Shown here in pieces: positions 27,805 to 61,300 of a DNA stretch of 64,000 nt. The first letter of the stretch is position 1, and each line of letters begins with the position of its first letter. The notes under the pieces were generated by a model. It saw nothing but the letters and a program-made list of their open reading frames with translations, had not been told where the DNA came from and did no database searches. Position numbers and translations under genes: made by a program. This DNA is from Bdellovibrionales bacterium (GTDB lineage: Bacteria; Bdellovibrionota; Bdellovibrionia; Bdellovibrionales; UBA1609), in contig OZ241967.1 of assembly GCA_965204055.1 (NCBI GenBank), positions 1,186,126-1,250,125 of the forward strand. Direction: 5' to 3'.

Positions 27805-27900
27805 GTTTTTTTCTAAATTACTGAAATTACTAATGTTTTTCATATTTTTCATAGTGATTTTTTAAACCCGAAATAACTTTACTTGCCTGTATCAAATAGT

Positions 27901-28115: not shown

Positions 28116-28129
28116 AGGTTATCCTTCTT

Positions 28130-28513: not shown

Positions 28514-28602
28514 CGTTTTTTCCTTTTTTAGTTTTTTATAATCCGGGACTCATTTTCATCTTTCTTTTATCATAGCAAAAATTCCAACTCTCTTCCTTTT
28601 AA

Positions 28603-28949: not shown

Positions 28950-29096
28950 AGTCCCCCGTGATAAACCTCATTCTCCTTCGCTGTCATACCTGCGAAAGCA
29001 GGTATCCAGAACCTAAAATGAAAGCCCAACGGGCTTTTAGCCTTTTTCAAGGGAGAATCCAGTCAAAATAACATACTTTTTCACGTTCCACTATTT
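28950..29096. mobile_element. MITE-like element (same family)
   Basis: AGTCCCCCGTGATAAACC ... CTTTTTCACGTTCCACTATTT inverted termini; internal hairpin ATACCTGC-GAAA-GCAGGTAT. Confidence 0.6.
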
Positions 29097-29550
29097 ATAA
29101 ATATTTATAAAGTAAACAACATTATCTACAGTTTATAAAGAAATACAATCCTTTGTTCTAAATTCTTTTGGATTTTTGACGCCTTGCGTAATCCTAACCT
29201 TGTAATTTCTTCACCTAAAGCCCTCTTTGTTGAACCCAATCCCAATTTAACTGTAGAAGGAAATCCAATTCATCCTGGTTTTTTAAACCATAAGCAGAAT
29301 AAACAAGAATTAAATCAAAAAAAAACTTATTCACACCCAACTCCTATGGATGACCGGTTTGTCAATAAAAAAAATCCTGCACCATGAAAGGCTTTATCAT
29401 CAACATCAAGCCCAACATACAGTATATTATTTTTCATTGGATGCCCTCCTTTATGTTAAAAGTTATATTTACCCTCCTTATATCTTATAAGAAGGGCAAC
29501 TTCACATATTAGAGTAACCAGCCCCAGAAAAGGTTGGTCATCCATATCTT

Positions 29551-29740: not shown

Positions 29741-32700
29741 TTACTCAGAGGTAATAGCCAACCAGCAAATGAGCTTAATATCTTCTTCTGAAATAGGAGG
29801 TAAAGGTTCAAGGGAACCGGCAGGTTCGAATCCCGTTTTAATAATCCAATTTATCAGCTTCTTGGCTTTCTCTTTTCCCTTATCACTATCATCATTAAAT
29901 TGTTCTCTTAAAAGCATTTCATCCCTTCTTGGCCAAGGAGATTCTACAATATCAAGAGCAGTATTTATAGCTTGCTCTGTCATATCAGAAGGTTTAAAAG
30001 ATCGAATAAAATCCGCTACCTCTCTATTTATTTTCCGTATTTTTGGCTGTAAATTAGCAGGATCCGCTTCATACATCCAAGAGCTTAAAATATCTTCTTT
30101 AGCCACATTCCAAAAATTATAAACTGACTTTCGAGCCTGCTTTGATAATACAGTTTTAGTATTTTCCTCAGCTTCAATAAGACGAAGGCAAGTTCCCATT
30201 TCCTTAACAATTTTTTTATTTTTTGGTTGCCATTTTTCATTTGAAGGGACAAACCTTAAGTAAGTTCTTTTTTCTCCAACAGTGGCACAAAAGAAAAATC
30301 CCTGCTCTTTTCCTTTGAGCATGCCCGAACCTGATTTCCACGGAAGGTTGACAATCCTATCTCGATTCTCTTTCAAGGCGTTTCTTAAAGTTTGACGATA
30401 TTCTTCCCCTGTTTGAGCAGAGCTAACTGTGCCTCCTCTTTCAAAAAGAGCAGGATTTTCTTTTAGAAGTTGGTTAATCTCTTCTCTTGTCTCAGTAAAA
30501 ACCTGCCTTCCGCTTTGTTCTCCTTCAATAGGAGAAGCAACACCGATACTTCTGGCGGCTAAGGCTAATTTATCTAAAATCCGTTGTTCTAAATCTAATA
30601 AAGCATCTAACCTGTCTGTAGGGAAAATGGTCCTTAAAAAAACCTCTTTATGCTGGCTTCCAATCCTATCAACCCGACCATGACGCTGAACCAAACGCAT
30701 AGGATTCCAAGGAAGGTCATAATTTATAATATGACAGCATTGTTGTAAATTTACCCCTTCTGCTAAAACATCAGTAGTTATTAAAATATCAAAATCATCT
30801 GATGGATTAGTAGATTCCATTGATTGAGGAGCAAAACCATTAACAGCTGATTCTCTGGACATTCCTGGATTAAATCTTTCTCTTTTATGATCAGAGCCTA
30901 TGATAGCCGCTATTCTTCCTTTATACTCTGTAAGCTCTGGATTATTATTTATTTCTTCTTCAAGAAATTTAAAAATCCATTGGACAGTGTCAGCAAAAAA
31001 AGAAAATATCAAAACCTTTCTCTTGTTTCTTCGTTCACTGGCATTCATTCCCTCTTTTTCAGATTGCCTTATTATTTTCTTTAATTCCTTAATAACTTTT
31101 TTCAGTTTTTCATCTTTTGTTTTTGTGATTTTATCTGCTTCTATTTTTAATTTTACAAGAATGTTTAAATCTTGTTTAACATCTCGTTTTAAGTTTTCAG
31201 CATTATAATTGTCTATACTCTCTGTATAAGGACTTTCTTTTAAAGACTCTTCTAAAGCTGTTTCATCATCAGCTGATAACTCCTGTAAAAATTGGGTAGA
31301 TATAACTTTTCCTTTATCAATAGCTTCTAAAAATAGCTTATGTTGTTTTACCATTCTTCCTAAAGTATTAGAAAAAGCAAACAAAGAAGACTCAAATCGT
31401 TTTAGAAGGCCAGAGCGTAAAAGACCAGCAATTCCTTCCGCTCTCCATTGGCTATCTTTATCCGGGTTTTTTAAATAACTATCAGGGATATATCTGGAGA
31501 ATTTAATTTTACAATTACTTTCAGGGTCAAGAGCCTGCTCTATATTTTCAAAAGGAAACATCTCATCCAATGAATAACGAACTGTTTGAGTTCTTGGAAC
31601 AGGAAAAGTGATTTGCAAAAGTGTTCCGTTTGGAGCTTTAATAGTGTCACTTTTATAATGCCTTTGTATAAACTGCCGTGTTCTTTTGACTGTTGTCCCG
31701 TCAATAATAGGAAATAATCTATCAGGGCTGAGGTCAGCTGGATTTTCGAGCATAGCTAAACGAAAAACTTCTTTTATAGATAAAATACCTTTATTAGCTA
31801 AGAAAGCATCCTGTTTTATAAAAAAATGAATAAGATTATAAAGGTCCCAAAGGGAATTATTGACAGGGGTAGCAGTTAACAACAAAACATCCTTCTTTTT
31901 TCCAGAAAGCAGTTGTCTTAAAATGCCTGCCCGCATAGGGGTGTCTGGATTTCTGTAGTTATGAGCTTCATCTATAATAACAAGCTGATATTCATCTACC
32001 TTTCTTTGTAATTTTTCTGAAACCCTTGTGACCTCTTCTTTATTTAATTGTTGATCTCTGGATAACTCTTCGTAAGATACACATTCAATAAAAATTTCAT
32101 ATTCAGATCTAAATTTTTTCCAGGTGCTATCTCTTAAACTGGCTGGACAAATCAACAAAGCTCTTTGTCGCCTGTTTTTATAAATTTCAATAATCTCACC
32201 AGCTATGTAGGTTTTCCCCAGCCCTACTTCGTCTGCTACTATAGCCCCATTGCATTCTTTAATAATTCGCAAAGCTCTAATGACACCATGTTTTTGAAAT
32301 TCAGTTAAATGTAAAAAGCTCTCTCCTAATTTACTGTCAACTTCAATCTCTTTTCCATAAAGTTCCCATAAAACTCTTATAAAAATTTCAAAAGGGGTTC
32401 GAATGGTCAGCAACTCCTCAAACAACCCGGCCAACTCAAAAGGAACAGCCTCCTCCCATAAGCTATCAAACCAGTTTTTTGCTTTCGTAATTGCTTCTTT
32501 ATCAGAACGACTGGTATTTAATTCCAGGTTTGTAGTCATTCCCGATTTTGTCATATTGGAAGAACCAACAATAATTCCTCCGTTTTCTTCTTTAATAAAA
32601 ATATAGGCTTTTGCGTGTAAAAAGTCTTTTTCATATCTCCGAATTTCAATATTTCCCGCTTTAAGGGCTTTAACAAAGTTTCTAATTCTTTGTTCGCTTT

Positions 32701-33067
32701 CAAAGCTAAATGGAAAGTGATTTCTTTCCTCCCATAGCCCTTTCTCAAGTGATTTTAAACTATCTTGTAGTTGCTTCTGTTTAAATTGCTTGTCCGTTTC
32801 TCCAATAGATCTTAAAGCAAAAAGATTTTTTGAAAAGAACTCAGCACCTATCATCAAACGCACACCTGCTGTGTTAATCAACTCATCCGCTATCTGAAAA
32901 AAACCTGCTGAAGTGAAAAAAGCAGTAGCAATACACACTTCATTATATTTAGAAATATCTTCTTGCTTTTTAAGAACAGCTTTTAAGGCTGAAGATAAAG
33001 TATTATCTTCAATATTATCAATCAGAACTGGGAAAAAAGATTTTTTAGAAGGAATACTTTTGCTCAA
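29741..33067 (-). CDS. PLD-like nuclease domain fused to an SNF2-family helicase
   Basis: 1108 aa; N-terminal HKD-like motif FLHAKAYIF...IIVGSSNMT; SNF2 motifs ADEVGLGKT (I), VIIDEAHNYRN (II), LLLTATPVNN (III), TDVLAEGVNLQ (V), QRHGRVDRIG (VI). Confidence 0.85.
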   Translation of the reverse strand: MSKSIPSKKSFFPVLIDNIEDNTLSSALKAVLKKQEDISKYNEVCIATAFFTSAGFFQIADELINTAGVRLMIGAEFFSKNLFALRSIGETDKQFKQKQLQDSLKSLEKGLWEERNHFPFSFESEQRIRNFVKALKAGNIEIRRYEKDFLHAKAYIFIKEENGGIIVGSSNMTKSGMTTNLELNTSRSDKEAITKAKNWFDSLWEEAVPFELAGLFEELLTIRTPFEIFIRVLWELYGKEIEVDSKLGESFLHLTEFQKHGVIRALRIIKECNGAIVADEVGLGKTYIAGEIIEIYKNRRQRALLICPASLRDSTWKKFRSEYEIFIECVSYEELSRDQQLNKEEVTRVSEKLQRKVDEYQLVIIDEAHNYRNPDTPMRAGILRQLLSGKKKDVLLLTATPVNNSLWDLYNLIHFFIKQDAFLANKGILSIKEVFRLAMLENPADLSPDRLFPIIDGTTVKRTRQFIQRHYKSDTIKAPNGTLLQITFPVPRTQTVRYSLDEMFPFENIEQALDPESNCKIKFSRYIPDSYLKNPDKDSQWRAEGIAGLLRSGLLKRFESSLFAFSNTLGRMVKQHKLFLEAIDKGKVISTQFLQELSADDETALEESLKESPYTESIDNYNAENLKRDVKQDLNILVKLKIEADKITKTKDEKLKKVIKELKKIIRQSEKEGMNASERRNKRKVLIFSFFADTVQWIFKFLEEEINNNPELTEYKGRIAAIIGSDHKRERFNPGMSRESAVNGFAPQSMESTNPSDDFDILITTDVLAEGVNLQQCCHIINYDLPWNPMRLVQRHGRVDRIGSQHKEVFLRTIFPTDRLDALLDLEQRILDKLALAARSIGVASPIEGEQSGRQVFTETREEINQLLKENPALFERGGTVSSAQTGEEYRQTLRNALKENRDRIVNLPWKSGSGMLKGKEQGFFFCATVGEKRTYLRFVPSNEKWQPKNKKIVKEMGTCLRLIEAEENTKTVLSKQARKSVYNFWNVAKEDILSSWMYEADPANLQPKIRKINREVADFIRSFKPSDMTEQAINTALDIVESPWPRRDEMLLREQFNDDSDKGKEKAKKLINWIIKTGFEPAGSLEPLPPISEEDIKLICWLAITSE

Positions 33068-33119
33068 TTCATATAACCTTTTGTTTTATTGAAAAATGAC
33101 TCTCTAATAACCTCAGTTA

Positions 33120-34091
33120 TTATGTTGGATTTGGTTTTTGATTTTGTATCTGTTGATTTGCTAAAATGTTGCTATATCGCCCCCAAGATACACCTTTAGT
33201 ATTTTCGTATAATTTTACAAAAGGACCAGGAAGATTAAAAAAACCATTGATTAAAATATGGGCCTCCCACAATAAATCTTGAAGTGTATTATCAGCAAAG
33301 TGAATTTTTAAACCTAACTTAGAAAGTTTTTTTATGGATAAAGGGCGGGTATGCATCAAATGTTCATCATAGTTTGATAAATAAGCAACAGCTTTGTCGA
33401 TTGTTTCGCTGTTGTTCTCACCTTTAAACATATATTCTTTGAGCCAGCTGGATACTAATTGTTTGGATAAACTTTCAGCATCTTCACACAGTTCCAGAAG
33501 ATTCAAAGAGTATTTTTCAATAAGAGGGATATAAGGCAACAGAGCTTCAGGGCCTTCTTTTTCTATTATTTTTCTTATTTTTTCAAAACTATTTTTTATC
33601 ATTCTTGCAGGGATACCATTGATTTGCGGATCAATAGGGCTTAAAATAGCACTGGGGTGTAAAATGATATTGTTTCCTGAAAGAGCTAACATTGTTGCCG
33701 CTGAATAGGCGGAATGAGGAATTAGAAAATCAACTTCTTTAAAATGACTGCGCAACAATTTCACAAGACGCTCTGTAGCATCTGGGCTACCTCCGGGACT
33801 ATGTAAAAGCACATCAACGGCAGAACTTCCTTTTACGGAGTTTATTAAATCAGTAACACCGTCTACATCAGATATATCAATGGAAATTAGAGCATCCGGT
33901 GGTAGAAGTTGTTGGTCTAAAAATTTTGTTACATATACCAGCAACGGTCGTTTGCGATATTTCTCAATGTCCTTATAACAATTTCTGCGAAGTTCCAGAA
34001 GGTTTACCTTTCCACCGGAAGTACACATAAAATTAAACCAATCTTGAGTCGTTTTAAACTTTATACGATTGGATTGAGGGTGGGAGTGCAT
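33120..34091 (-). CDS. Clp-fold serine protease of the SDH (serine dehydrogenase proteinase)/SppA-like type
   Basis: 323 aa; LLHSPGGSPDA, HSAYSAATMLALSG and SPIDPQ motifs as in ClpP/SppA-fold SDH proteases; 52 bp upstream of the helicase; start uncertain (alternative ATG at 34028). Confidence 0.6.
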   Translation of the reverse strand: MHSHPQSNRIKFKTTQDWFNFMCTSGGKVNLLELRRNCYKDIEKYRKRPLLVYVTKFLDQQLLPPDALISIDISDVDGVTDLINSVKGSSAVDVLLHSPGGSPDATERLVKLLRSHFKEVDFLIPHSAYSAATMLALSGNNIILHPSAILSPIDPQINGIPARMIKNSFEKIRKIIEKEGPEALLPYIPLIEKYSLNLLELCEDAESLSKQLVSSWLKEYMFKGENNSETIDKAVAYLSNYDEHLMHTRPLSIKKLSKLGLKIHFADNTLQDLLWEAHILINGFFNLPGPFVKLYENTKGVSWGRYSNILANQQIQNQKPNPT

Positions 34092-34293
34092 CAGTATCTA
34101 TCTCAAAATTTTTTGTTGAACCAGAACTATATTTATATATTTTTTTTCGACCCATAGCAATATCTATTTTTTCTGCAATATCGGAAATTTCCTTATATGT
34201 TTTATAAAACTCCAATGCTTTGGCATTTTCGTTTAAAACAGATTCAGGCAGGATTTCTTCAGTCGTAAGTTTTGATTTTTTTTGAGTAGTCAT
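34054..34293 (-). CDS. small hypothetical protein, first gene of the protease-helicase operon
   Basis: 79-aa ORF, same strand, overlaps the annotated protease start by 38 nt; no recognisable motif. Confidence 0.4.
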   Translation of the reverse strand: MTTQKKSKLTTEEILPESVLNENAKALEFYKTYKEISDIAEKIDIAMGRKKIYKYSSGSTKNFEIDTDALPPSIQSYKV

Positions 34294-34362
34294 ATTTTAT
34301 ATTATCGTTAATTTGGATTATGAAGTCAACAAAATTATAGCTGAAAAATCAAGCAAAAAACA

Positions 34363-35490
34363 CCTTAAAATGCCATTTTCACCCTATTTTACTTGTCATT
34401 GTTCCCTTTTGGAATATATTATCATCCTTTAAATTGTCCTTGCCCCTCGTTTTTTAGCTACCTTATTTCAATGGCACTTTAAAGAGGTAATAAATTTATA
34501 AGAGATTGACAAAAAGTTTTTTGTGCATCACTTTTGAACACCATGAAAAAAAGCAAAAAGTTTCTACACGATCATTTATTTAAAGAAGTTTACTCTCAAC
34601 CCAAATACTGCGTAGACATCTTAAGCCTTGTTTTCTCAACAGAGGAAATGAGCCTGTTTGATTGGACTACCCTTAAAACCGAAGCCACCACTTTTGTTGA
34701 CAAGCAATTTAGAGAAAAACGAATGGACCTTCTGGTCTCAGCCCTTTTTAAAGGCTCCCGGAAGCCTGCCAGAGTGTTGTTCTTAATGGAGCACAAGAGT
34801 CAAGAAGACCCGGAGCTATTACGGCAATTTTTAATGTATCAGGCAGGTATTTATCAAAGTACCCGTGATCCAGTGCTCCCTATATTTATCAACCAAAGTC
34901 CAAACAAAACTTGGAAAGGGTCTTTAGATTTTCATGGTTTTTTAGATAATTTTGAAGGAGAGTTAAAAAAGAGGTTTAAAGAGAATGTGTTAAATTTTCG
35001 CCCCAGAGTATTGAATATTCAGGCTTTAGATATAGATAAGGCCAAGGGCTTGACAACGTGTCCTATTTTGTATATTTTAAAGCATATATGGAACTTAAAC
35101 GCGAAAAAGATAAAGGGGTTATTTACAATAGGCCGTGGTTTGAGTCAAAATGAGCGAGAAGCTTTGATCGTGCGAGCGGTGGATTATGTTCGTCAATATG
35201 ATCCTAATTTTAATTGGAAGATAGTAAGAGAGATTGAACAAACCACAGTCAAAAAGGAGGAAAGAGTTATGGCACCGTTACTTCAGTATTCATTGGATGA
35301 AGCCAGAGAAGAAGGCTTAAAAAAAGGCCGACTGGAAGGTATAGAAAAAGGCATGGAAAAAGGCATGCAGGCGGTAGCCTTAAACATGTTGAAAGCAAAA
35401 GCGGATCTATCTTTTATCTCCAAAATGACAGGTCTTTCTGAGGCAGAAATCGAAAAACTTAAAAACAACTCTTAAAAAGAGTTTTTCATT
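34363..35490. repeat. ~1.1 kb direct repeat, copy 1 (Rpn gene plus its upstream region)
   Basis: Aligns by eye with 42190-43318 at high identity, with a ~35-bp indel upstream and a 36-bp indel in the (GGCATGGAAAAA)n tract. Confidence 0.85.
34534..35475 (+). CDS. Rpn (YhgA-like) recombination-promoting nuclease / putative transposase family, copy 1
   Basis: 313 aa; HDHLFKEVYSQP N-terminus, RMDLLV...VLFLMEHKSQ (PD-(D/E)xK-type D...E-x-K), C-terminal EEGLKKGRLEGIEKG and TGLSEAEIEKL; likely start ATG at 34543. Confidence 0.8.
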   Translation: MNTMKKSKKFLHDHLFKEVYSQPKYCVDILSLVFSTEEMSLFDWTTLKTEATTFVDKQFREKRMDLLVSALFKGSRKPARVLFLMEHKSQEDPELLRQFLMYQAGIYQSTRDPVLPIFINQSPNKTWKGSLDFHGFLDNFEGELKKRFKENVLNFRPRVLNIQALDIDKAKGLTTCPILYILKHIWNLNAKKIKGLFTIGRGLSQNEREALIVRAVDYVRQYDPNFNWKIVREIEQTTVKKEERVMAPLLQYSLDEAREEGLKKGRLEGIEKGMEKGMQAVALNMLKAKADLSFISKMTGLSEAEIEKLKNNS

Positions 35491-35707
35491 TTTTTCTGCA
35501 ACGGAAAAAGACAATATTAAAGATCAGGTGTTGCTTTATGCCAGTGCATCTGCTTTTTCCAATCCTTCAACTGGCTTTAATAAAGCTCAAGGTGTGCCCT
35601 TGCCCCCAGGAGTGGAGCTTACAAAACAGATTGTCAGTCGTTCCCCTGATAATATTTAAACGTTTAATTTATCTCTTTGGGTTTAATAATTTTTTTAGGA
35701 TGTGGCT

Positions 35708-38700
35708 TTAAAGTTTCTTTTTCCAAAGATTGTAATACTTTAAAACGGCGGTTAAGCGGGACTGGTAGTCCCCAGTTCTGTGAAAGGTCTCAAAGATATG
35801 AATAAGTTGTTTTTGAGACAAGCCGTAAAGGTGAGCCACTACAGCGTCTAATTCATAAATCATATTGTTCTTTTTTTCTTCATCCAGCGGACCATATTCT
35901 ACACCTACAGCTTCAGCCCATTTAGAAAATCGTTTATCTGGGGAAGCTAACCGACCAGAGAGAGCTACAACTTTTTTCCAAAGAGGGTTTTCTCTGGAAG
36001 GTCTGGGAATAGGAAAAGTATTAAGAAGAAAAAAACTAAGACTATTTGTAGAAATAAATAAACGAGCATACCAATCTAAAGGAATAGAGCTTAAAACTCC
36101 AAGTAAAAAGGCTTCATCTTTTTCATCTCCTCTTGGAAGTAGAAAATAAGGTGCTTTATGAACTAAAAACACTTTAGGGGGCAAAAGGCTGGTTTTAACC
36201 GTTCTGTAATCAATGCTGTTTGTTACATCGTGAAATGCAATTCTTGGTTTAAAGCAAGATAAAGTATTTTTATTTTGTATATAATCAATGGAAAACTCTG
36301 AATGAACGCTTTTTTGATTTTTATGACTATTAAGTCTTTTGTTATAAAGCCAAGAGAGTGCTGTTTCAGGATTGGCATAAGCATAATACTTCCTTGTATC
36401 AGTTTTCCAGATATTAAAAGACCTACCTGTCCAAACTGGCCAAAACCCTTTTGGACATTTTTTTGATTTTAAATCCATTAAAGGTTTTGATCCTGTAGTA
36501 TGTAATTCTGTATCAGGTCGAACTCTCCAACTATTTTTATCATTCAAACCTAACCGGGGGCTTTTCCTTAATTGAAGAAAAACATCCATAGAATCTTCTC
36601 TTGGTAAAGAGGGTAAGGAAGCAGAATCTGTCCATGAAAATACTTGCTTTTCTGTAAAAGACAAAGACAGTTTGTTTTCTTTAGCTTGCAACTCCTCATG
36701 GGAATAAAAAGGGCCTTGAATATGGATTGTTTTACCAGTGGGGCGGAAATCTCTTGTTCGGCTTAATTTTTTTTCAAATTGTTGGACAAAGGGTTTAAAA
36801 GTGAGATTGTGTTTTTCAGATGTTTTTTTTAAGGAAATCAAAGCAATATTATATTGAGCATGAACTTCCGAAAAAATCCACTTCTTGTTATTGATTAGCA
36901 TTGTTATATTAGAAGAAGCATTATTAAAAATGTCTTTTCTAAATAACTCCGATCCCTTTGCGGAAAAAACATTCCCTGGAAGAACGACCCCCAAAAATCC
37001 ACAATCTTTACAAATAAGATGCCAAAATCTCCATGAGAAAAATTTATACAAGTCAGAATCTCCTGAACCGGATTGAACATAAGATGATTGTTTCAATACA
37101 TTTTTAAGCCTTTTAACATTTGATAGCTCTTTCTCATACTCTTTGACAAGGTGAGGGTATTGTCTTTTTACTTTTTGATATTCTGCCTCTCTCTCCCTTT
37201 GAGAAAGTCCTCTTAATCCGGGAAAATGCCTGGCCCAAAAAGCATGTTCTTCCAGCTTGATTTTTTCCCAAGGAGGGTTGCCAATAATTACATCAAAGCC
37301 AGGCCTCTTTCTTAAAAAAACTTCAGGAAAAGCTATGGGAAAATGAAGGGTTTTTAAATTTTTAAGCTCTAAACGAGCTGATTTTAGTTCTTTGGAATTA
37401 TGAATGCTTTTTATGTTTTTTACCCATTCTACCAGTTTAAAACCACTTACTTGGTTAGTTATGCGATTAAAAATTATTACATCAAACAAGGCTTTAGTAT
37501 CCTTTAAAGAAGATTCAATCTCTTTTTTAAAGAGTCTGCTTGCTTTTATTTCCTCAACACTTAAATCAGCAAGTTTTCTCATATCTTGAAGAGACTTTTT
37601 TGCCTGACCAATTAGTTTTTCTCTATCAATCAGATCAAAAGACAAGTTTTCTGATTCTTGTTTGCTTTTAAGCTCTGATTGAAATTCCTTAATGGTCCCT
37701 ATACCCACAAGGGAGTTTCCACAAATTAGATTGTGATTAAAATAGGAAAGAGGAAGCCCTGGAACAAATGTATGTGTCCAAAGTGATAACTTGGCCAATT
37801 GCACCGCCAAGTCATTATTGTCCACCCCGTAAATGCAGTGCTTTGCAATATGTCGGGCTAAATATTTTCTGTCTTCAACTGGAAAATAATCGTCAGATAT
37901 ACCTATATCTTTGAGATTTTTTTCCGCTGTCTTTTTTGTTTTATCTAAAATATTTTGAACACCCTTTAAAGGTCTGTTATTCAAATAGTCTGCCATTTTG
38001 TTTTCAATCCTATCAACCGCTGCCACTAAAAAATGCCCGGACCCCATCGCAATGTCCGCCGTAAAAAAGTTAAAAAATTCTTTTTCTGCGTCTTCGTCAT
38101 GCAATTTATTTAAGCGGTTAAAATGCTCTTTTAAAGCGGGTTCAAGAGATTTGTCTAAAATATAATCAACAATAAAACTTTTGGTGTAATAACTACCTGT
38201 TGCTTTTCTTGCTCCAGATTGATTGTGCAAATAAACCTCTCCCTTTTTAACAATAATTTCTTCTGTTTTTTTAGATTTCTTGTTTTTACTGACTTTTAAC
38301 TTCCTTAAAGGGACATAAATATTGTTTGTATCCAATGTTAAATCCGTATCAGCTATTGATAAATTAGACTCTAAAAGTCCCTCATAAATAGTCCCAAATT
38401 CACGAGGACCCAGAAAACGAAAATCCACTGGGCCAAGAGGAGTTTCCTCATTTTCCATAAGAAGCAAGCTTTTTAAAGCAGGCACAAAAAATTTATTGGA
38501 AACAGAAACCTTTGCAATTTCATGCCCTGTTGTTGAAACCTCTTTTTCACTACTAAACAAGCCTCCGTTATAAGCCATAATTCCCCACTCAATATTTCCT
38601 TTATCAATAGCCTCCCAAAGCCTAACTGTTTCTTTCCAGTGATTATCTCCTTCTTCAGGTTCTTTCCCGTTTGAAAAAAGTTTTGATAATTCTAAAGCTT

Positions 38701-39859
38701 TTTGTTTTAAAGATCGGTTATGATAAGCTGAATTTGTATTATAAGGTAACAAATCTTTATCTTCTGCATAAGCTATAAATAAAAGGCGAAACAAAACAAT
38801 CAATGTCATTTGATAAGTTTCATTTAACTCTTCAGGAGAAGGTTTTTTTAAGCTTCTTGCATGAACAATCCCTTTAGCTATTTGAGGAATAATCTCATCA
38901 TAAATTCGTGGTTTTAAGTTTTTTGCTACACCTTCTGAAAAACGTTTTGAGTTTTCTAAAATTTCAGTTAAAGAACCTTGTTCACTTAATGCCTCTGCGG
39001 AAAAAATAAGCCATAGATAACCCAGATTTTCTTCCTGCAAGAGAGAAGGCTGGCATTCCACATAAGTTTCTGTTCGGGAATTATGGCTTAATCCTGTTTC
39101 TTTTTTTGTGCTGTAAAGCCGAATATGATTATCTTGAATCATTAAAACCCAAGGCATGTGCTCCTGGTCCGCTTTATTCATAGCATAACTAACAGGGGAT
39201 AGTTGATTAAAACGTTGTTCTTTAGATTCGTGTGTTTCTGAAGGTTCCAGTAAAACAGCTAAAGCTCTTTTTTTATCATGGCTTTTTAAAATATATGTCC
39301 GGTCGTCAAGCTGGCTAATTTGAAAGCCAAGCCCTTTTAAAAGCTCTTTTTTTCCAAAAACAGATATGGCTTTAGATTTTTCTTTGGCTTTCTCCCAATC
39401 AGGACGATTTTTTACTCCATAAGTAAGATGATGAGAAGACAACATGCCTTTATTGTTGATTCCAAATAATCCTTCTTCTATAGAAGAAAGAAAACGAGAA
39501 CAAAATTTTAAGGCTCTGTGCCGGTTGGGTTGTTTTAAAGCTACCTGACAAAATTTTTCAACTAGTTCAAGTTGAATGTTTTTATAAACAGGAGGGTTTT
39601 CTCCAGAAGCACCACAAAGAGAAGCTTGATTATCACCATGAATAACAGTTAATAAAACCGGTGATGCTCTATGGTTTTTCCTTTTCTTTTGAGCCTTTTT
39701 TACAGTTTCAGTGTTGGGGGTGTTATTGCCTGTTAACACTGCTATTTCTAAGGCATCCCTTCCTTTTCCTAAAATTAATTTCTCCGACTTAAGCCCTGAT
39801 ATTAAATTGGAAAGGGGCCTTGATTGAAAATCATCGAGAAATTTCTTTACAGCACTCAT
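35708..39859 (-). CDS. giant N6-adenine DNA methyltransferase of the PglX / type IIG-IIL restriction-modification type
   Basis: 1383 aa; LIVLFRLLFIAYAEDKDLLP helix, SAM motif DIAMGSGHFLVAAV, catalytic motif IV VIIGNPPWEKIK, ~400-aa C-terminal region in the usual target-recognition position; no nuclease motif could be confirmed in the N-terminal ~280 aa. Confidence 0.8.
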   Translation of the reverse strand: MSAVKKFLDDFQSRPLSNLISGLKSEKLILGKGRDALEIAVLTGNNTPNTETVKKAQKKRKNHRASPVLLTVIHGDNQASLCGASGENPPVYKNIQLELVEKFCQVALKQPNRHRALKFCSRFLSSIEEGLFGINNKGMLSSHHLTYGVKNRPDWEKAKEKSKAISVFGKKELLKGLGFQISQLDDRTYILKSHDKKRALAVLLEPSETHESKEQRFNQLSPVSYAMNKADQEHMPWVLMIQDNHIRLYSTKKETGLSHNSRTETYVECQPSLLQEENLGYLWLIFSAEALSEQGSLTEILENSKRFSEGVAKNLKPRIYDEIIPQIAKGIVHARSLKKPSPEELNETYQMTLIVLFRLLFIAYAEDKDLLPYNTNSAYHNRSLKQKALELSKLFSNGKEPEEGDNHWKETVRLWEAIDKGNIEWGIMAYNGGLFSSEKEVSTTGHEIAKVSVSNKFFVPALKSLLLMENEETPLGPVDFRFLGPREFGTIYEGLLESNLSIADTDLTLDTNNIYVPLRKLKVSKNKKSKKTEEIIVKKGEVYLHNQSGARKATGSYYTKSFIVDYILDKSLEPALKEHFNRLNKLHDEDAEKEFFNFFTADIAMGSGHFLVAAVDRIENKMADYLNNRPLKGVQNILDKTKKTAEKNLKDIGISDDYFPVEDRKYLARHIAKHCIYGVDNNDLAVQLAKLSLWTHTFVPGLPLSYFNHNLICGNSLVGIGTIKEFQSELKSKQESENLSFDLIDREKLIGQAKKSLQDMRKLADLSVEEIKASRLFKKEIESSLKDTKALFDVIIFNRITNQVSGFKLVEWVKNIKSIHNSKELKSARLELKNLKTLHFPIAFPEVFLRKRPGFDVIIGNPPWEKIKLEEHAFWARHFPGLRGLSQREREAEYQKVKRQYPHLVKEYEKELSNVKRLKNVLKQSSYVQSGSGDSDLYKFFSWRFWHLICKDCGFLGVVLPGNVFSAKGSELFRKDIFNNASSNITMLINNKKWIFSEVHAQYNIALISLKKTSEKHNLTFKPFVQQFEKKLSRTRDFRPTGKTIHIQGPFYSHEELQAKENKLSLSFTEKQVFSWTDSASLPSLPREDSMDVFLQLRKSPRLGLNDKNSWRVRPDTELHTTGSKPLMDLKSKKCPKGFWPVWTGRSFNIWKTDTRKYYAYANPETALSWLYNKRLNSHKNQKSVHSEFSIDYIQNKNTLSCFKPRIAFHDVTNSIDYRTVKTSLLPPKVFLVHKAPYFLLPRGDEKDEAFLLGVLSSIPLDWYARLFISTNSLSFFLLNTFPIPRPSRENPLWKKVVALSGRLASPDKRFSKWAEAVGVEYGPLDEEKKNNMIYELDAVVAHLYGLSQKQLIHIFETFHRTGDYQSRLTAVLKYYNLWKKKL

Positions 39860-40200: not shown

Positions 40201-42006
40201 ATGATTGAAAAATTATATTCCATTTTAAATGAATTTAAAAAACCAGAATTTATGATCGAGAACAAAATCTACCGTAAAATCTGTGACTTTAACAATAAAG
40301 AATTTAATGAAAAAAAATTACCAAGAACTTCTAAATTTTTTTATGAAGAATTAGCTTTTGCTTTTATGGAAGGAAGAAATCCTCCTTTAGAATGGGGAAA
40401 TACTTTTTATACTCCATTATTTGGTTATATTGATCCTACAACTAAACAGTGGAGCTCTTCTTATCCAGACATTCAACAGATCACTCCTGAAATGGTGATT
40501 TATTGGGAAAAACGCTCTTCAGAAGTTAGTAATCCAATTTTGCAATGTCGTTATTCAGGACTTGTATGGGATTTTTCACAAAAAATAAGAAATTTAAACC
40601 CCGATATATCAATTGTTCATAGATTCATTGATTCTGTAATTAATATGGCCAATTTAGGAGAAAACCCTTTTTTAAAAGATAAATTGGAAAGAAGTTTAAA
40701 AGTGGCCATTTCCACTAATAACCAACAAAGAATTATCTCTACTCGTGATGCTATTATTAAATATGAAAACACTTATGCTAAGGATGATAAACTGGGAACA
40801 TGGGGATATTCTTACGATTTGTTAATTAGTAACAAAAACCTATATCGTAAAGTTCAATTAAGAGAGAAACAAGAAAACAAAATTATACAAGAACTAGAAA
40901 AAAAATTAAAGAAATTTTCCGATAGAGAATCAAAAAATCTCAGTCCTCATTCTGTTGAGTATATAGCAACAAAATTAGCTCCCTATTATAAAGGCAAAAA
41001 TGATATGGAAAATATGAAAAGGGTTTTACTTATATATAGAGATTCTTTTTTATATGGAATTAACAACAATCGTGTAATGATAGGAAGCCATTGGTTAGAG
41101 AAAATTAGAATAATTTTATTTCAGTATGGTTTATCTGAAGAAGCAAAAGAGTTAGAACCTAATATAAGAACCCTTCAAAAGGAAGATTTAAAATATCTGC
41201 AAAAGTTTGAAACATCTGTTAAAATTCCAAAAGCGCAAATTGACAATTACATCTCTGAGCTTGATAGAAAGAGTCTCTCTGAGGCATTAAATTGTATTGC
41301 ATTGTCTTTTATCCCTGATAAAGAAGAAGCTAAAAATATTGTTCTTAAAATTGCAAAAGAACATCCATTACAGGCCAGGATTAGTCAATCTATTATGGAT
41401 CATACGGGAAGGAAAGTTGCTACAATTGATCCTATAGAAAATGATTTGGCGGGACATATTGTTCGTCAAATATCTCAATCAATGCAGATGAATCTATCTT
41501 TTATTGCATTAGGATTAAATCATTTAAAAGAGCATAAATTATTAGATGCTAATTCACTTGCAAATCATCTATTCCAGTCACCAGTATTTATACAGGCAAA
41601 TCATCCAATTATAAAACAAGGTTTAATTGCATATTTTAATAAAAACTATATTGTAAGTTGTTCTGTATTGATACATCAAATTGAATCAGCAATAAGAGAG
41701 TTAATTTCCGTAGCTGGAGGAGCAATTTATCAGCCTTCTAATAATTATAGAAAAACAGGTTTTAAGTTAAGACCTTTAGGAACTTTGCTGAGAGATGAAA
41801 TTTTTACTAAAGTTTTTGAAAAATTAAATAGTAATATACCAGAGTTTTTCAGAATCCTGTTAGTAGATAAACGATCTCTGAATATTAGAAATTCTATTTA
41901 TCATGGTCATTTTCCTGCCGGTTTTTTTAATGAAAGGATTGCTATTCATATTATTCATATATTACTTATTTTGTCAGTTTTGAGGAAAGGTAAAACACTC
42001 TCTTAA
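40201..42006 (+). CDS. hypothetical protein with a DUF4209-like C-terminus (R-N-x-x-x-H motif, HEPN-like)
   Basis: 601 aa, very AT-rich; C-terminal SLNIRNSIYHGHFPAGFF fits R-x4-H; divergent from the methyltransferase gene. Confidence 0.4.
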   Translation: MIEKLYSILNEFKKPEFMIENKIYRKICDFNNKEFNEKKLPRTSKFFYEELAFAFMEGRNPPLEWGNTFYTPLFGYIDPTTKQWSSSYPDIQQITPEMVIYWEKRSSEVSNPILQCRYSGLVWDFSQKIRNLNPDISIVHRFIDSVINMANLGENPFLKDKLERSLKVAISTNNQQRIISTRDAIIKYENTYAKDDKLGTWGYSYDLLISNKNLYRKVQLREKQENKIIQELEKKLKKFSDRESKNLSPHSVEYIATKLAPYYKGKNDMENMKRVLLIYRDSFLYGINNNRVMIGSHWLEKIRIILFQYGLSEEAKELEPNIRTLQKEDLKYLQKFETSVKIPKAQIDNYISELDRKSLSEALNCIALSFIPDKEEAKNIVLKIAKEHPLQARISQSIMDHTGRKVATIDPIENDLAGHIVRQISQSMQMNLSFIALGLNHLKEHKLLDANSLANHLFQSPVFIQANHPIIKQGLIAYFNKNYIVSCSVLIHQIESAIRELISVAGGAIYQPSNNYRKTGFKLRPLGTLLRDEIFTKVFEKLNSNIPEFFRILLVDKRSLNIRNSIYHGHFPAGFFNERIAIHIIHILLILSVLRKGKTLS

Positions 42007-42189
42007 GTCCTAAACCTTCTATGTGGTTCTTATCTCTTGTATACTTTAGAAGGCATGCATGCCGTACAATAAAGATTTTTGTTTGCAGATTCTATAAAGC
42101 TATATATTAGCTCCTAAGAAATGCTTAGCCTGTTATTTTGCTTATTTTTTATCATTTTTACAGGGATACCATTGATTTGCGGGTCAATA

Positions 42190-43318
42190 GGCCTTAAAAT
42201 GCCATTTTCACCCTATTTTACCTGTGATTTGTCTTTACTATTTTTTAGCTACCTTATTTCAATGGCACTTTAAAGAGGTAATAAATTTGTAAGAGATTGA
42301 CAAAAAGTTTTTTGTGCGTCACTTTTGAACACCATGAAAAAAAGTAAAAAGTTTCTACACGATCATTTATTTAAAGAAGTTTACTCTCAACCCAAATACT
42401 GCGTAGACATCTTAAGCCTTGTTTTCTCAAAAAAAGAAATGAGCCTGTTTGATTGGACTACCCTTAAAACCGAAGCCACCTCTTTTATTGACGAGTCATC
42501 AAGAGAAAAACGAATGGACCTTCTGGTCTCAGCCCTTTTTAAAGATTCCAGGAAGCCTGCCAGAGTGTTGTTCTTAATGGAGCACAAGAGTCAAGAAGAC
42601 CCGGAGCTATTACGGCAATTTTTAATGTATCAGGCAGGTATTTATCAAAGTACCCGTGATCCAGTGCTTCCAGTATTCATCAATCAAAGTCCAAACAAGA
42701 AATGGAAAGGGTCTTTAGATTTTCACGATTTTTTGAATAATTTTGAAGGAGAGTTAAAAAAGAGGTTTAAAGAGAATGTGTTAAATTTTCGCCCCAGAGT
42801 ATTGAATATTCAGGCTTTAGATATAGATAAGGCCAAGGGCTTGACAACGCGTCCTATTTTGTATATTTTAAAGCATATATGGAACTTAAACGCGAAAAAG
42901 ATAAAGGGGTTATTTACAATAGGCCGTGGTTTGAGTCAAAATGAGCGAGAAGCTTTGATCGTGCGAGCGGTGGATTATGTTCGTCAATATGATCCTAATT
43001 TTAATTGGAAGATAGTAAGAGAGATTGAACAAACCACAGTCAAAAAGGAGGAAAGAGTTATGGCACCGTTACTTCAGTATTCATTGGATGAAGCCAGAGA
43101 AGAAGGCTTAAAAAAAGGCCGACTGGAAGGTATAGAAAAAGGCATGGAAAAAGGCATGGAAAAAGGCATGGAAAAAGGCATGGAAAAAGGCATGCAGGCG
43201 GTAGCCTTAAACATGTTGAAAGCAAAAGCGGATCTATCTTTTATCTCCAAAATGACAGGTCTTTCTGAGGCAGAAATCGAAAAACTTAAAAATAACTCTT
43301 AAAAAAGTTTTCATCAAA
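42190..43318. repeat. ~1.1 kb direct repeat, copy 2
   Basis: See 34363-35490. Confidence 0.85.
42325..43302 (+). CDS. Rpn (YhgA-like) recombination-promoting nuclease family, copy 2
   Basis: 325 aa, near-identical to copy 1 except for scattered substitutions and 4 instead of 1 GMEK units (12-bp repeat at 43141-43188). Confidence 0.8.
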   Translation: MNTMKKSKKFLHDHLFKEVYSQPKYCVDILSLVFSKKEMSLFDWTTLKTEATSFIDESSREKRMDLLVSALFKDSRKPARVLFLMEHKSQEDPELLRQFLMYQAGIYQSTRDPVLPVFINQSPNKKWKGSLDFHDFLNNFEGELKKRFKENVLNFRPRVLNIQALDIDKAKGLTTRPILYILKHIWNLNAKKIKGLFTIGRGLSQNEREALIVRAVDYVRQYDPNFNWKIVREIEQTTVKKEERVMAPLLQYSLDEAREEGLKKGRLEGIEKGMEKGMEKGMEKGMEKGMQAVALNMLKAKADLSFISKMTGLSEAEIEKLKNNS

Positions 43319-43453
43319 AAGAGCTGAGGTATCCAAAAATAGGAACCAATCCATGATTTTTTTAAGCTACAACTTTGTATTTCTGTTTCCAAAAAAGGAC
43401 ATTTATTAACTTGAAATGCTATTTTCACACTGTTTTACTTGCCATTATCTATA

Positions 43454-44031
43454 TTAAATTTTTAAATATTGGTTGATGATTTTTTTTACCTGGTTGATTG
43501 TCGCTTGTAAGTTTGCATTCTCCACACAATAATCAAACTGAGTGCTTTGCTCTAACTCTTTTCGCGCCTGCTTCATCCGTCTTTCTATATCCTCTGCACT
43601 GTTTTCTTTTCTTTTACGAACACGATTCGCTAACTCCTCTTGAGAAGGAGGAGAAATAAAAATTCTTAAAGTTGAGGGTAAAGCTTTTTAATTGCGTTTG
43701 CACCTTGTAAATCAAAATCTTTGATAATAGCCCGCCCCTTATTCCAATGCTGGGTAATTTGCTCGATAGCGGTCCCGTAATAATGATTATAAACATAAGC
43801 CCATTCTGCAAAAAAGTTTTTCTGGGTAAGAAATAAAAACTTTTTTTCACTCACAAAATGATAGTCCTGGCCTTCTCGCTCAGCCCCCCTTAAAGGACGA
43901 GTAGTGTAAGAAATGGTTTTGCCCATTATCCTTGAACCATATAAAGATAATATCTCTTTTACTATCGTGGATTTTCCCGACCCACTTGGCCCAGATAAAA
44001 CGATAATTTTTTTTTTCATAAAACTAAACAA
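43454..44031 (-). pseudogene. gmk: guanylate kinase with a single-nucleotide frameshift
   Basis: The N-terminal 121 aa carry the P-loop SGPSGSGKST and TTRPLRGAEREGQDYHF. The C-terminal part (LRIFISPPSQEELANRVRKR...ERRMKQARKELE) continues in another frame to a stop at 43454. Total 578 nt, one short of a multiple of 3. Confidence 0.75.
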
Positions 44032-44257
44032 AGGATTACACTTTGTCCTTCCTATATAACGAAAAAACTTTTTCTCATCAAACTAAATAGTTTATCCTGA
44101 ATAAGTTTGTTCAGTTAAGTAAACCACTTGGATCACATCTCCTTAAAAGTCCAGAGATTCCCGCTCTTAAGTTAGAATAACAGAGGAAAAAAAGCATTTG
44201 TTAAAGACCAACTCAAAAAAACAACTCAAAAGGATATTATACCCTACTTTCTCTAAT

Positions 44258-48208: not shown

Positions 48209-48286
48209 CGGAAGTGCAGGTGCATCTTCAGAAGCAACTGGCAAAATTAACCATCAGCAACATGGATAACTATCCCCCTTTGGGGG
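48209..48286. repeat. single copy of the 83-bp hairpin-ended repeat family
   Basis: GCAGGTGCATCTTCAGAAGCAACTGGCAAAATTAACCATCAGCAACATGGATAACTATCCCCCTTTGGGGG, identical to the units at 61301-61632, abutting the stop codon at 48287. Confidence 0.85.
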
Positions 48287-50962
48287 CTATTTGCAGGGGA
48301 TTTTGTTTGTCCGACACATCCATTGAACACGATGGCTCATCCTCTGAAATATGTCATCATGCGGAGAACCAAACTTCCCCACCTTGTGGTTTAATTGCTT
48401 GCCCTTCGGCAATAACTTCTTTAAATCTAAACTCGCCAATCCCCTCTTGCTCCCTTTTCCCCTTTTCGCACTCCTTCTGTATCCTCTCCTTGAATTTCCA
48501 CTGGCAGAACCTCCACCGCTGTAACCCGCAAACTTACCCCCCGCATATCCATGTAATATCTTCTTGCCCTTAGCTGAATCTCCACCTCCGGATCCCCTCC
48601 TACCAGGACCGGAAGAACCACCACCGCCACCAAGACCACCAAGCCCCCCGCCTGTGCCACCACCGCGTCCGCCAAGCAGTCCACTCATACCACCCGGAGA
48701 ACTCTTGTCTTCCTCTTGCTCATCCTCCCCTAAATCAGGCTCCTCTCCCAATGGATCCGCAGGCCCGGAAAGAGGGTCATCATCTGGTAATTCAAAGGGC
48801 TTCCTCCTTCTCTTACGAGGATCCTTATCAGGACCACCCCCTCCCAACTCTGGAACCGGAGCAGGAGGACCATCTGGAGAGGATATAATTGGGGAACCAG
48901 TAGGCCTGATTATCGGTTGTTGTGGTATAACTGGGGATTTTTGTTCCCACTCAAGCGGTGGTTCACCACCACACTCCCGCATAGACGCTAAAAGACTTGT
49001 ACCTATGTTTGTGCTCATATCTTGTATTGATCTATTGGCCTCACGGCCTGTTACCTCACATTGCCCAGGAGCTTTTGCTATATTTACCTCTCTGCCATCG
49101 CTTTGGGTTGTGTGAGTGGTTATATATTGTTCTTTATAATGACTAAAAAACCTCTCTGTGCAAGAATGCTCTGAAGGATTATATCCTTCTTTGTCTCTTA
49201 TACTACCACGGCAAGCCTCCTTAAACGCTTTTGCCACCTTATTCTGCTCCTGACGACAGCCTGATTGACAACTGTTAGCCTTGCTTGTGCATTGACCAAC
49301 CATTGCCCCCTTCATTCCCGCATAAAGACCAGAAGTCTCTTTTACCGCGTCACATTGCTCCTTTGCCCCTCTAAATGCACTCATACCTACATGTAATTTG
49401 CCTAAACCATCTAAAGCCGTGGCTAATCCTCCACCCACACACTGCTCAGGACTATGGCAACATTTGTTGGCTTTTTTTTGAAGCTCCGCACAGGTCTCTA
49501 TCGCCTCCTCTAAAGCTAAAACTAAATCCGCCTCGCAACTCTGATTTTCATCCCTCTTACACACCACCCACCACGAAAAAGGCTGTATAGGTTCACCAGA
49601 TTCGTCAAACTGAGCATCTACCTCTTTTTTCACAAAGGGCGATATATAGCTTATATAGCTATCCTCAGTAATATTATTTATTAGGAAACTCAGATGTTCA
49701 TTAGAAGTATCTGTAGTACCTAAACCCAGTCCCCTCCTTCTTGAAGAAGCACTTGTCATTTTAGAAAAATAACCTACTATGTCTTCAGGATTAACATCGG
49801 TAAATATCTTTTCTGCTTTTGTTTGTCCCGCCACCTCACAAAATTCTAGACAGCCTGGATTACCTTTTGTAGCGGGTTCTTTACATAGGAGAGTCACACC
49901 ACGCCCTTTTTCCTCTGCTTTTTTTTTAATGTATCCTGAGCATTTTTCAGCATATATTTTATTGAATGTGTCTTTTAACTTCGATAAACACCCTCCACGC
50001 TGTCCCTCAATAGATTCTTCTACTGCAAGCGGAATATTAAGAGGGGGGCTATCGCAAATAGTACTGCATTCTATGTCATTTATTGAATCACAAACCCCTG
50101 TTTTACCACTTATAGAATTTACATATTCATTACACTGGTCTTGGCATTCTCCCGTATCAGTGGCTACCGATGATCGCTCACTCGTTTCCTTAAGTCTTCG
50201 ACATTCTGCTAAGTGCTCAATATTAGTACGTGACAGACAAACCCTATCGCAAGGTATTCCACCGCTGGTCCGTAAATTAGAATATTTTGTTTCACATTCA
50301 TTTTCTACTTGTACATGATCTGAACCATCACTTAATATTTCCTGTTTGCACATGGCTAATACTTTGCCAAGCTCACCTCTCATATCACTACCACCGCGAC
50401 GACAAGCACTATAACAGGAATACCCTTGTACGAATACTCTTTGAAATTTTTCACAGGTTGATGAATCCCCACCTGCTGTACTGGAGACGGATCGTGCATC
50501 TGCATCTGCAACCGAACCGTTAATCATTTCCCTCGTTTTTGTTGAATCATAAGCGAAACGGCTTAACTGTGCTTCTGATTCAACAGGGCTTGATTCCGCA
50601 TCTTTTTCATGATCAGCACCAGCATCATCACCATCACCATCACTATCACCATCACTCCTCCATGTCGCTTCCATCTCTGTCATACGTTGGTTACATTCTT
50701 CGTCTAACGTTGCACCTCTGAATATTTCAACTCCATTTATGGATCTTTTATCTCCACCTCTCAGACAACGCTCATATACCTCTCTGGGGGTTGTTTGTGC
50801 ATAGCCACTAAAACAGAACAAAATCTGTATCAAAACCACTATCAGAACACTTAAAGCTTGCAATATACCCTCCCTTATGCCTGCTTTTCTAAAGAAGTTA
50901 ACCTGATTTTTAGAAGAATATAAAAAAATAAAAGCCAAAACTGCTTGACAGTTTTCCCGCAA
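48287..50962 (-). CDS. large secreted cysteine-rich protein with a Pro-rich and Gly/Arg-rich C-terminal half (paralogue of 61634..64000)
   Basis: 891-aa ORF from a TTG. The likely true start is the TTG at 50863, preceded by AAGGGAGGG. That gives the signal peptide M-QALSVLIVVLIQILFCFSGYA|Q. No recognisable catalytic motif. Confidence 0.7.
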   Translation of the reverse strand: MRENCQAVLAFIFLYSSKNQVNFFRKAGIREGILQALSVLIVVLIQILFCFSGYAQTTPREVYERCLRGGDKRSINGVEIFRGATLDEECNQRMTEMEATWRSDGDSDGDGDDAGADHEKDAESSPVESEAQLSRFAYDSTKTREMINGSVADADARSVSSTAGGDSSTCEKFQRVFVQGYSCYSACRRGGSDMRGELGKVLAMCKQEILSDGSDHVQVENECETKYSNLRTSGGIPCDRVCLSRTNIEHLAECRRLKETSERSSVATDTGECQDQCNEYVNSISGKTGVCDSINDIECSTICDSPPLNIPLAVEESIEGQRGGCLSKLKDTFNKIYAEKCSGYIKKKAEEKGRGVTLLCKEPATKGNPGCLEFCEVAGQTKAEKIFTDVNPEDIVGYFSKMTSASSRRRGLGLGTTDTSNEHLSFLINNITEDSYISYISPFVKKEVDAQFDESGEPIQPFSWWVVCKRDENQSCEADLVLALEEAIETCAELQKKANKCCHSPEQCVGGGLATALDGLGKLHVGMSAFRGAKEQCDAVKETSGLYAGMKGAMVGQCTSKANSCQSGCRQEQNKVAKAFKEACRGSIRDKEGYNPSEHSCTERFFSHYKEQYITTHTTQSDGREVNIAKAPGQCEVTGREANRSIQDMSTNIGTSLLASMRECGGEPPLEWEQKSPVIPQQPIIRPTGSPIISSPDGPPAPVPELGGGGPDKDPRKRRRKPFELPDDDPLSGPADPLGEEPDLGEDEQEEDKSSPGGMSGLLGGRGGGTGGGLGGLGGGGGSSGPGRRGSGGGDSAKGKKILHGYAGGKFAGYSGGGSASGNSRRGYRRSAKRGKGSKRGLASLDLKKLLPKGKQLNHKVGKFGSPHDDIFQRMSHRVQWMCRTNKIPCK

Positions 50963-51374: not shown

Positions 51375-51792
51375 AGATTTTAACAAGAGACCAATATAGC
51401 CTTATAGAAAATGAAAACAAAAATCTTTATTGTCCGCCCTCTAAAAGCACACAAGAAATAAGATCCATATACGAGGCCTTAGGTCTTAAAAGAGTGTCTA
51501 AATTTTGAACCAAATCTTAAAAATGTGTTCCCTCCAAAATTTTGTAAGTATCTGAAATTACTCATTTATTGCATTGTGTTGTGCGGAAATCGGGAAAAAC
51601 TCTTGACTGGAATTTTATTACTATAGTAGTTTTTTTGCAGGCTACTATTGATATTCGGTTCACTTTTTATCATTCCAGCTTAAGAACAGGAATCTTGCTG
51701 TTTTGTTGTAAGCTGGTCCTCTATAGTCGTCTGTGAAAAAACTAACTGAGCTAAAAAAGCAATAAAACCACAATCTTAAGGAGGAAAAAATT

Positions 51793-61295: not shown

Positions 61296-61300
61296 CGGGG

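Follow-up and report, generated by a model that had tools for sequence, protein, structure and literature searches.

The scar and its parental sequences

The window analysed here is a stretch of 64,000 nucleotides (nt) from a Bdellovibrionales bacterium (assembly GCA_965204055.1, contig OZ241967.1, positions 1,186,126 to 1,250,125). It carries an island of defence genes in which a gene for an SDH-type protease is paired with a small gene coding for 79 amino acids (aa), a pair that is referred to below as the cassette, and in which a unit of about 1.05 kb containing an rpn gene is present twice (Rpn1 and Rpn2). Directly before Rpn2, at 42143-42229, a short fragment of the protease gene is joined to a 38-nt motif. 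We shall argue that this scar is probably the dead remnant of a second cassette, lying beside an rpn unit that was placed there separately as a discrete module. The features on which the argument depends are the following.

33120-34091, minus strand: intact gene for an SDH-type protease of the ClpP fold (PF01972, 74.5 bits against a cut-off of 31.3), in which 33590-33647 is the parental segment of the fragment
34054-34293, minus strand: the 79-aa gene, which overlaps the start of the protease gene and is paired with it in all relatives examined
34301-34329, minus strand: promoter-like site of the cassette, TTGACT-N17-GATAAT, conserved in eight cassettes and gone from the scar
34363-34400, plus strand: motif copy 1, in its native place, holding the palindrome AAAATGCCATTTT
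42143-42200, minus strand: the protease remnant of 58 nt, covering codons ~148-166 (placed by tblastn at protease residues 147-167)
42193-42200: the junction microhomology octamer CTTAAAAT, found in both parental sequences (33640-33647 and 34364-34371)
42192-42229, plus strand: motif copy 2, identical to copy 1 at 36 of 38 positions and separated from the cassette promoter and genes
43409-43446, plus strand: motif copy 3 (32/38), isolated between unrelated flanks, 8 nt beyond the stop codon of gmk

The first-pass annotation had reported a 57-bp match to the protease gene with about five mismatches. Self-BLASTN of the window, as that annotation had proposed, finds the match to be real and significant, with 54 of 58 positions identical (93.1%) between the remnant and its parental segment, in the same orientation, ungapped and at an E-value of 1.5e-17; a repeat finder gives the same pair. 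The original coordinates were one base off, the length is 58 rather than 57 nt and the mismatches number four. The minus-strand translation of the fragment, ILRPIDPQINGIPVKMIKN, corresponds to ILSPIDPQINGIPARMIKN in the intact protease. The fragment is closest to the window's own protease gene, from which those four mismatches separate it, against nine each for the orthologues in L001 and L002 and 14 for that in L083; it also matches the orthologue in L085. To the left of 42143 no protease homology was seen beyond chance (alignment score 21, against a shuffle mean of 20.3).

The region is AT-rich, at ~35% GC, a composition that would favour reading the fragment or the motif copies as chance similarity. 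Such a reading is so improbable that it can be set aside: it is ruled out by the E-value, by the matches to orthologues and by simulation of the motif, which occurs three times in the window at up to 12 mismatches where 0.05 occurrences are expected from simulated sequences; at up to 10 mismatches, the three copies observed stand against none in 40 simulated sequences.

The junction itself can be placed within 8 nt. The octamer occurs in the interior of the protease gene, upstream of Rpn1 and at the join, and to its right copy 2 tracks the sequence from 34372 onward; the switch of homology to 34364 and beyond, described at first pass, is thereby confirmed. Between the two parental octamers lie 724 bp that are missing from the scar (the earlier figure of ~715 bp was approximate, the loss of about 0.7 kb correct), and in the parent these comprise the first ~147 codons of the protease, the 79-aa gene and the cassette promoter. 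Both parental sequences of the junction are identifiable, collinear, on the same strand and in native order. The arrangement thus resembles the scars left by microhomology deletion or replication slippage, where the parents can be recognized and one copy of a direct repeat, here of 8 nt, has been removed along with the intervening DNA. It differs from typical slippage scars in that the remnant is unusually small and its other sides are also sharp breakpoints.

Judged from its reading frame, the fragment is a non-coding pseudogene remnant in which the protease frame is not intact: the frame runs for 32 codons from stop to stop, has no start codon and retains 19-21 codons of the protease. Three of the four substitutions change an amino acid, as compared with 2-3 of 6-9 in intact orthologues, a pattern that fits a remnant without constraint, with the counts being small. 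In being non-coding and in having substitutions that look unconstrained it is like other decaying duplicates. A promoter-like sequence across the junction (TTGATT-N17-TAAAAT, 42172-42200) was considered as a sign of function and rejected, since two such sites are found where 1.7 are expected by chance. The scar remnant encodes nothing and drives nothing; it is non-functional.

The 38-nt motif and the cassette control region

It had been supposed that the protease fragment was fused to the upstream region of an rpn gene. The comparison with relatives, of which the nearest reference genomes are Bdellovibrionales metagenome-assembled genomes (MAGs), leads to a different identification. L085 and L086, which belong to another lineage and have the island at another chromosomal site, contain neither Rpn nor DUF4209 genes, and the motif is found in them (36/38) at the corresponding position before the small gene, within surrounding DNA that is ~83% identical. 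L002 retains a recognizable motif and L001 its proximal half. When eight cassette upstream regions are aligned, they share the promoter-like site, a CTTGATTTT box and AAAAT-N3-ATTTT, a palindrome that takes in the microhomology octamer. The distal end of the motif is a divergent promoter-like sequence, TTGTCA-N16-TATATT with TTGTCA as the -35 element, and faces Rpn1 in the window and, in L085, a gene on the opposite strand that we call X. The motif, lying distally upstream of the cassette, is therefore predicted to be a control region of its divergent intergenic spacer, and is not an Rpn-associated sequence. Because it is native to the region upstream of the cassette, also in Rpn-less lineages, the two halves of the join can be traced to a single cassette, in which they have the same order and orientation. 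The scar is accordingly a copy of the cassette that has lost 724 bp internally and is truncated at its 3' side.

The scar can be followed into a second strain. L083 is a 144-kb contig from another assembly, representing a closely related strain with the same locus beside gmk and with core genes 97-100% identical to those of the window; it and the window are the two strains of this lineage compared, and both carry the scar. Around the junction 121 of 121 nt are identical, inside a block of 2.7 kb at 100%. The scar is thus shared, but within such a block the identity says nothing on selection.

A third copy of the motif at the gmk border had already been noticed; the border is correct and the position needed revision, to that listed above. 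Cassette homology around this copy was not above that of shuffled controls. The three copies of the motif thus differ in their surroundings and share the same sharp ends. Furthermore, the breakpoints of at least five separate events fall in the motif or within 8 nt of it: the scar junction at motif positions 2-9, a tandem duplication in L083 between positions 14 and 15, both edges of motif 3, the junction of motif 2 with Rpn2 at position 38, and the points where homology ceases in L002 and L001. In two strains only, this recurrence possibly reflects selection that keeps a regulatory site, or a site that is prone to recombination. A more far-reaching proposal is that the motif is a preferred recombination site and that an rpn unit of ~1.05 kb is a discrete module copied, with fixed ends, to its distal side; we regard this as speculative and improbable. 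If it were true, these would be natural footprints of a site-biased, Rpn-linked joining of DNA, with a bearing on how rpn genes, which are not transposases, come to spread. Two metagenome scans for the motif, one with its exact core and one with a degenerate form, gave nothing.

The Rpn units and the order of events

Four further features, together with the segment that separates Rpn2 from motif 3, are needed in order to discuss how the rpn genes came to their present places.

34401-34434: the ancestral spacer of 34 nt, conserved with L085 and absent from copy 2
34435-35487, plus strand: Rpn1 unit, with its coding sequence at 34543-35475, a predicted RpnS-like internal start at 35269 and two EKGM repeats; a terminator-like hairpin precedes its end
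35486-35653, plus strand: remnant of gene X, comprising its last 56 codons, 86% identical to residues 283-338 of the 338-aa L085 protein
42230-43313, plus strand: Rpn2 unit, with its coding sequence at 42334-43302, a predicted RpnS-like internal start at 43060 and five EKGM repeats; it abuts motif position 38
43312-43408: 97 nt without a significant relative, between Rpn2 and motif 3

The two repeats of ~1.1 kb recorded in the first-pass annotation are real and, with the 38-nt motif included, extend over 34363-35487 and 42192-43313. Between 34450-35485 and 42241-43311 they are 93.75% identical with gaps counted and 96.3% ungapped. Rpn1 and Rpn2 match PF04754 (Transposase_31, YhgA-like) with 69.1 and 71.7 bits, the cut-off being 21, and there is a match to TIGR01784 (58.1 bits, cut-off 52.1). 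Both keep the sequence ...RMDLLVSA...LFLMEHKSQED..., in which D and E-H-K would be, by analogy, the catalytic positions of a PD-(D/E)XK nuclease; both copies look intact. The best match to Rpn2 in a scan of genome contigs is 74% identical and lies in L004, a Bdellovibrionales MAG. No match to the scar together with Rpn2 was found in plasmid and phage collections.

Duplications and arrays of rpn genes in defence islands have been described by Zhong et al. 2023 (PMC10400941), and the present genes resemble them in several respects. They are Transposase_31/TIGR01784 genes with variable four-residue repeats in their C-terminal part (EKGM twice in one, five times in the other); they are set in a defence island; and inverted repeats and target duplications are lacking. 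As in the arrays, a tandem duplication in L083 has arbitrary ends, and partial copies occur in L004 and L089. In both window copies AGGAGG-N7-ATG stands 12 residues before the four-residue repeats, which recalls the internal ribosome-binding site and ATG of the RpnS antitoxins (PMC10400941) and would be the start of a small C-terminal protein. The 12-nt repeat coding for EKGM (35336-35367 and 43127-43194) is seen in 2, 5 and about 4 copies, and Rpn1b of L083 has a different repeat unit, in agreement with the variation in four-residue repeats between strains that has been reported for Rpn/RpnS. A difference in repeat number abolishes cross-neutralization between RpnS and RpnL in E. coli (PMC10400941), and by analogy Rpn1 and Rpn2 may be insulated from each other in the same way. 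The window copies are unlike the published arrays in being dispersed, 7.8 kb apart, with exactly the same unit ends, whereas varying ends are reported for the arrays (PMC10400941).

The ends common to both copies are TGTC at the start (34435 and 42230) and TTCAT at the end (35487 and 43313), the latter after the terminator-like hairpin. The flanks differ: copy 1 lies between the 34-nt spacer and codon 283 of X, and copy 2 between motif position 38 and unrelated DNA, so that the unit stands 34 nt from the motif in the one case and 0 nt in the other. Neither terminal inverted repeats nor target duplications of the Rpn units were found; TGTCC... at one end and ...TTCAT at the other do not form an inverted repeat. 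The window and L085 cease to be homologous at 34434 and are so again from 35485, and this break, together with the tail of X that follows Rpn1, indicates that the Rpn1 unit replaced the 5' 85% of the ancestral gene. An origin of Rpn1 from copy 2, through motif-anchored recombination, was rejected, since the ancestral spacer between motif and unit is still present in copy 1. L083 carries one more Rpn in tandem, and the junction of this duplication (window 35650|34377) falls within the motif; L004 and L089 have several copies of Rpn as well as fragments of it. A MITE-like element (resembling a miniature inverted-repeat transposable element) of ~130 nt is found in L083 upstream of Rpn1a (2922-3050), with terminal inverted repeats GTCGGCC...GGACCGAC and a target duplication of 7-8 bp, CTACCTTA; the window has the empty site.

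These observations suggest the following sequence of events for the second cassette and the separately placed rpn unit. A fuller copy of the cassette would once have been present at the site of the scar. It would have been cut on its 3' side at about protease codon 166, and would then have lost, or never have received, the 724 bp between the two octamers, the join being made either by microhomology-mediated deletion or by template switching. The rpn unit would have been placed at two sites, each time as a discrete module, rather than being duplicated along with the cassette. The fragment and motif retain the order and orientation that they have in the intact cassette. An ancestral duplicate reaching from the protease interior through the 79-aa gene to Rpn had been postulated at first pass; its extent from the protease interior to the upstream region of the cassette stands, and the inclusion of Rpn is doubtful, given identical unit ends between flanks that differ on both sides.

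Several points weigh against this history. An undeleted second cassette, as sought at the suggestion of the first-pass annotation, was not found in L083, at the DUF4209 orthologue loci of L088 and L089 or in two metagenome scans, sampling being very limited. The divergence from the parent is of similar size throughout, at 6.9% for the fragment, 5.3% for the motif and, for the Rpn unit, 3.7% ungapped within a range of 3.7-6.3%, which fits one joint duplication too. Aligned with one another, the five Rpn units present in the two strains form a mosaic, which points to gene conversion; the divergence of Rpn1 and Rpn2 therefore cannot date the duplication. Finally, the lack of the 34-nt spacer from copy 2 could be due to a later deletion and not to a separate insertion.

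The joint duplication just mentioned would have carried 33590-35487 as one segment into the spacer between DUF4209 and gmk, and have been followed by deletions of 724 bp, at the octamer, and of 34 bp, at the spacer. It is a possible account that we do not think probable. All three patches are in parental order and orientation, their divergences are similar and published rpn arrays have been ascribed to direct duplications of genomic regions (PMC10400941). Two coincidences of boundary are required of it, however: its right end must fall 0-5 nt from the boundary of Rpn1 with the X remnant, and the 34-bp deletion must end exactly at the left end of the unit. On account of these coincidences separate placement of the rpn unit is the more likely; nor was any intermediate form found.

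It might also be asked whether the whole patchwork arose in a single replicative event, by serial switching of primer and template through 58 nt of protease gene, 38 nt of motif, the Rpn unit, the 97 nt that have no significant relative and, once more, the motif. The segments are indeed short and sharp-ended, and one of the junctions has 8 nt of microhomology. At the others there is microhomology of 0-1 nt, motif 3 has diverged more (6/38) than motif 2 (2/38), and the model does not explain why switches should coincide exactly with the Rpn unit's ends; we consider such an event unlikely. Microhomology deletions also arise without Rpn. A connection with Rpn itself has been drawn by Kingston et al. 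2017 (PMC5350276), who found that Rpn nucleases raise RecA-independent recombination, modelled it as template switching, a finding that favours the single event, and suggested a role in the microhomology-mediated assembly of islands, for which the nucleases would provide substrates. There are likenesses to this Rpn-stimulated recombination in the short-identity junction directly beside rpn in a genome island, and in the several more illegitimate junctions within ~1.3 kb; the difference is that the published evidence comes from overexpression in E. coli (PMC5350276). The scar fits the picture of Rpn-linked recombination, with Rpn as a candidate for the making of the junction, and the 'Rpn-associated shuffling' of defence genes suggested at first pass is a plausible hypothesis. 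It should be noted that in the published view, with which the lack of inverted repeats and target duplications agrees, rpn genes move and are yet not conventional transposons, and that RpnL has been the subject of speculation that it may itself start rpn-duplicating events (PMC10400941).

Remodelling of a conserved island

The neighbouring genes bear on the wider arrangement, and are given here in order along the window.

29741-33067, minus strand: HKD(PLD)-SNF2 helicase, with which the ancestral island ends
35708-39859, minus strand: type IIG restriction-methyltransferase, a full-length PADLOC match and the ancestral neighbour of the cassette
40201-42006, plus strand: DUF4209 protein, a single-gene module (PADLOC candidate PDC-S39)
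41995-42105: a lineage-specific repeat of ~110 nt, between DUF4209 and the scar
beyond motif 3, minus strand: gmk, then yicC

A five-gene island consisting of the type IIG methyltransferase, X, the 79-aa gene, the SDH protease and the HKD-SNF2 helicase is found in two lineages at different chromosomal sites (29741-39859 in the window, 4395-14359 in L085, and in L086). In L085/L086 the methyltransferase is 78% identical to that of the window at the amino acid level, the protease 79% and the helicase 87%; the small gene codes for 78 aa and X for a membrane-like protein of 338 aa. The pair of small gene and protease also occurs alone beside other restriction systems (L001, L002, L084 and L087); L002 and L084 have methyltransferase remnants beside their cassettes, and L002 has two paralogous cassettes. 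Neither the protease nor the 79-aa protein has a match in PADLOC. The five-gene island, or the pair within it, may be an undescribed defence module.

At first pass the two Rpn copies were taken to bracket the methyltransferase/R-x4-H module like a composite element, of which they would be the arms and the methyltransferase and DUF4209 genes the mobile cargo. It is true that 6.7 kb of defence genes lie between direct repeats of ~1.1 kb, as in a composite transposon, and in L089 the DUF4209 gene likewise has Rpn genes on both sides. The comparison fails in most other respects. The supposed cargo is ancestral, the methyltransferase being already beside the cassette and helicase in the Rpn-less L085/L086, and DUF4209 is a separate single-gene module. 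There is no known autonomous transposase, Rpn proteins having been reported not to be transposases (PMC10400941); terminal inverted repeats and target-site duplications are lacking, the flanks are unrelated and no plasmid or phage matches were obtained. Nor is there a sign of movement, L083 having the same arrangement at the same chromosomal site. A composite element is thus very improbable.

DUF4209 belongs to the HEPN superfamily (PMC3710099). Its homology with L088 and L089 is confined to the coding sequence and ends at the stop codon, and because these loci share the coding sequence only they are uninformative on the ancestral junction. In L089 the gene is followed directly by an incomplete second copy of its final ~240 nt, in tandem (11909-12147, 88% identical), which is another small rearrangement scar in Rpn-rich surroundings. 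The ~110-nt repeat overlaps the DUF4209 stop codon in the window; an inverted copy, 76% identical, is intergenic at 51394-51497, another is present in L083 (20115-20218), and the repeat has no match in Rfam.

On the far side of motif 3, the reading frame of gmk is broken by the loss of one base from a run of T (43666-43672; AAAG-TTGAGGG, compared with AAAGTTTGAGGG in L083, where the gene is intact and codes for 188 aa). The likely cause is a mistake in the assembly; otherwise gmk, which is normally essential, would have become a pseudogene very recently. A copy related to the MITE-like element lies between gmk and yicC (44095-44212), with fragments at 6430-6473 and 10102-10128. Farther on, a direct repeat of 1.95 kb (48209-50137 and 61556-63481, 92% identical) forms parts of two minus-strand open reading frames of 891 and 779 aa, both of which are preceded by tandem repeats of ~83 nt (61297-61635). 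On the opposite side of the island there is a tRNA-Asp gene (27728-27804), the 3' end of which is not repeated elsewhere in the window, so that no tRNA-derived att repeat is present; the island genes that were scanned did not include an integrase, and an Rfam scan of 27.5-52 kb returned tRNA only. Between the tRNA-Asp gene and the helicase, 27888-29100 is dense with tandem repeats with periods of 66, 24 and 25 nt, the 24-nt array lying within an open reading frame of 127 aa and coding for repeated KERDQEQA.

The comparison with L083 (1560-2748, corresponding to 33120-34293) also reveals a change in the intact cassette. At the amino acid level the protease is 73% identical and the small protein 59%, as compared with 95% for the helicase; the motif is identical at 38 of 38 positions. 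Such divergence of the cassette beside a well-conserved helicase implies a swap of cassette alleles between strains that are otherwise nearly identical, with the fragment in the scar keeping the window-type allele. The C-terminal part of the methyltransferase (36000-37250) is only ~70% identical in L083, and may be an exchanged target-recognition domain.

The scar by itself is an ordinary rearrangement scar and changes nothing in the function of the cell. It is of value for the well-resolved record that it offers of the rebuilding of a defence island: a conserved five-gene island has been remodelled in three ways, by an rpn unit that replaced a gene, by a cassette that was duplicated and decayed, and by a cassette allele that was swapped between near-identical strains. 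The surroundings of the scar provide a modest lead on the placement of rpn units. If more genomes of this lineage were to show rpn units with fixed ends repeatedly beside the motif, there would be a concrete handle on how rpn genes move.

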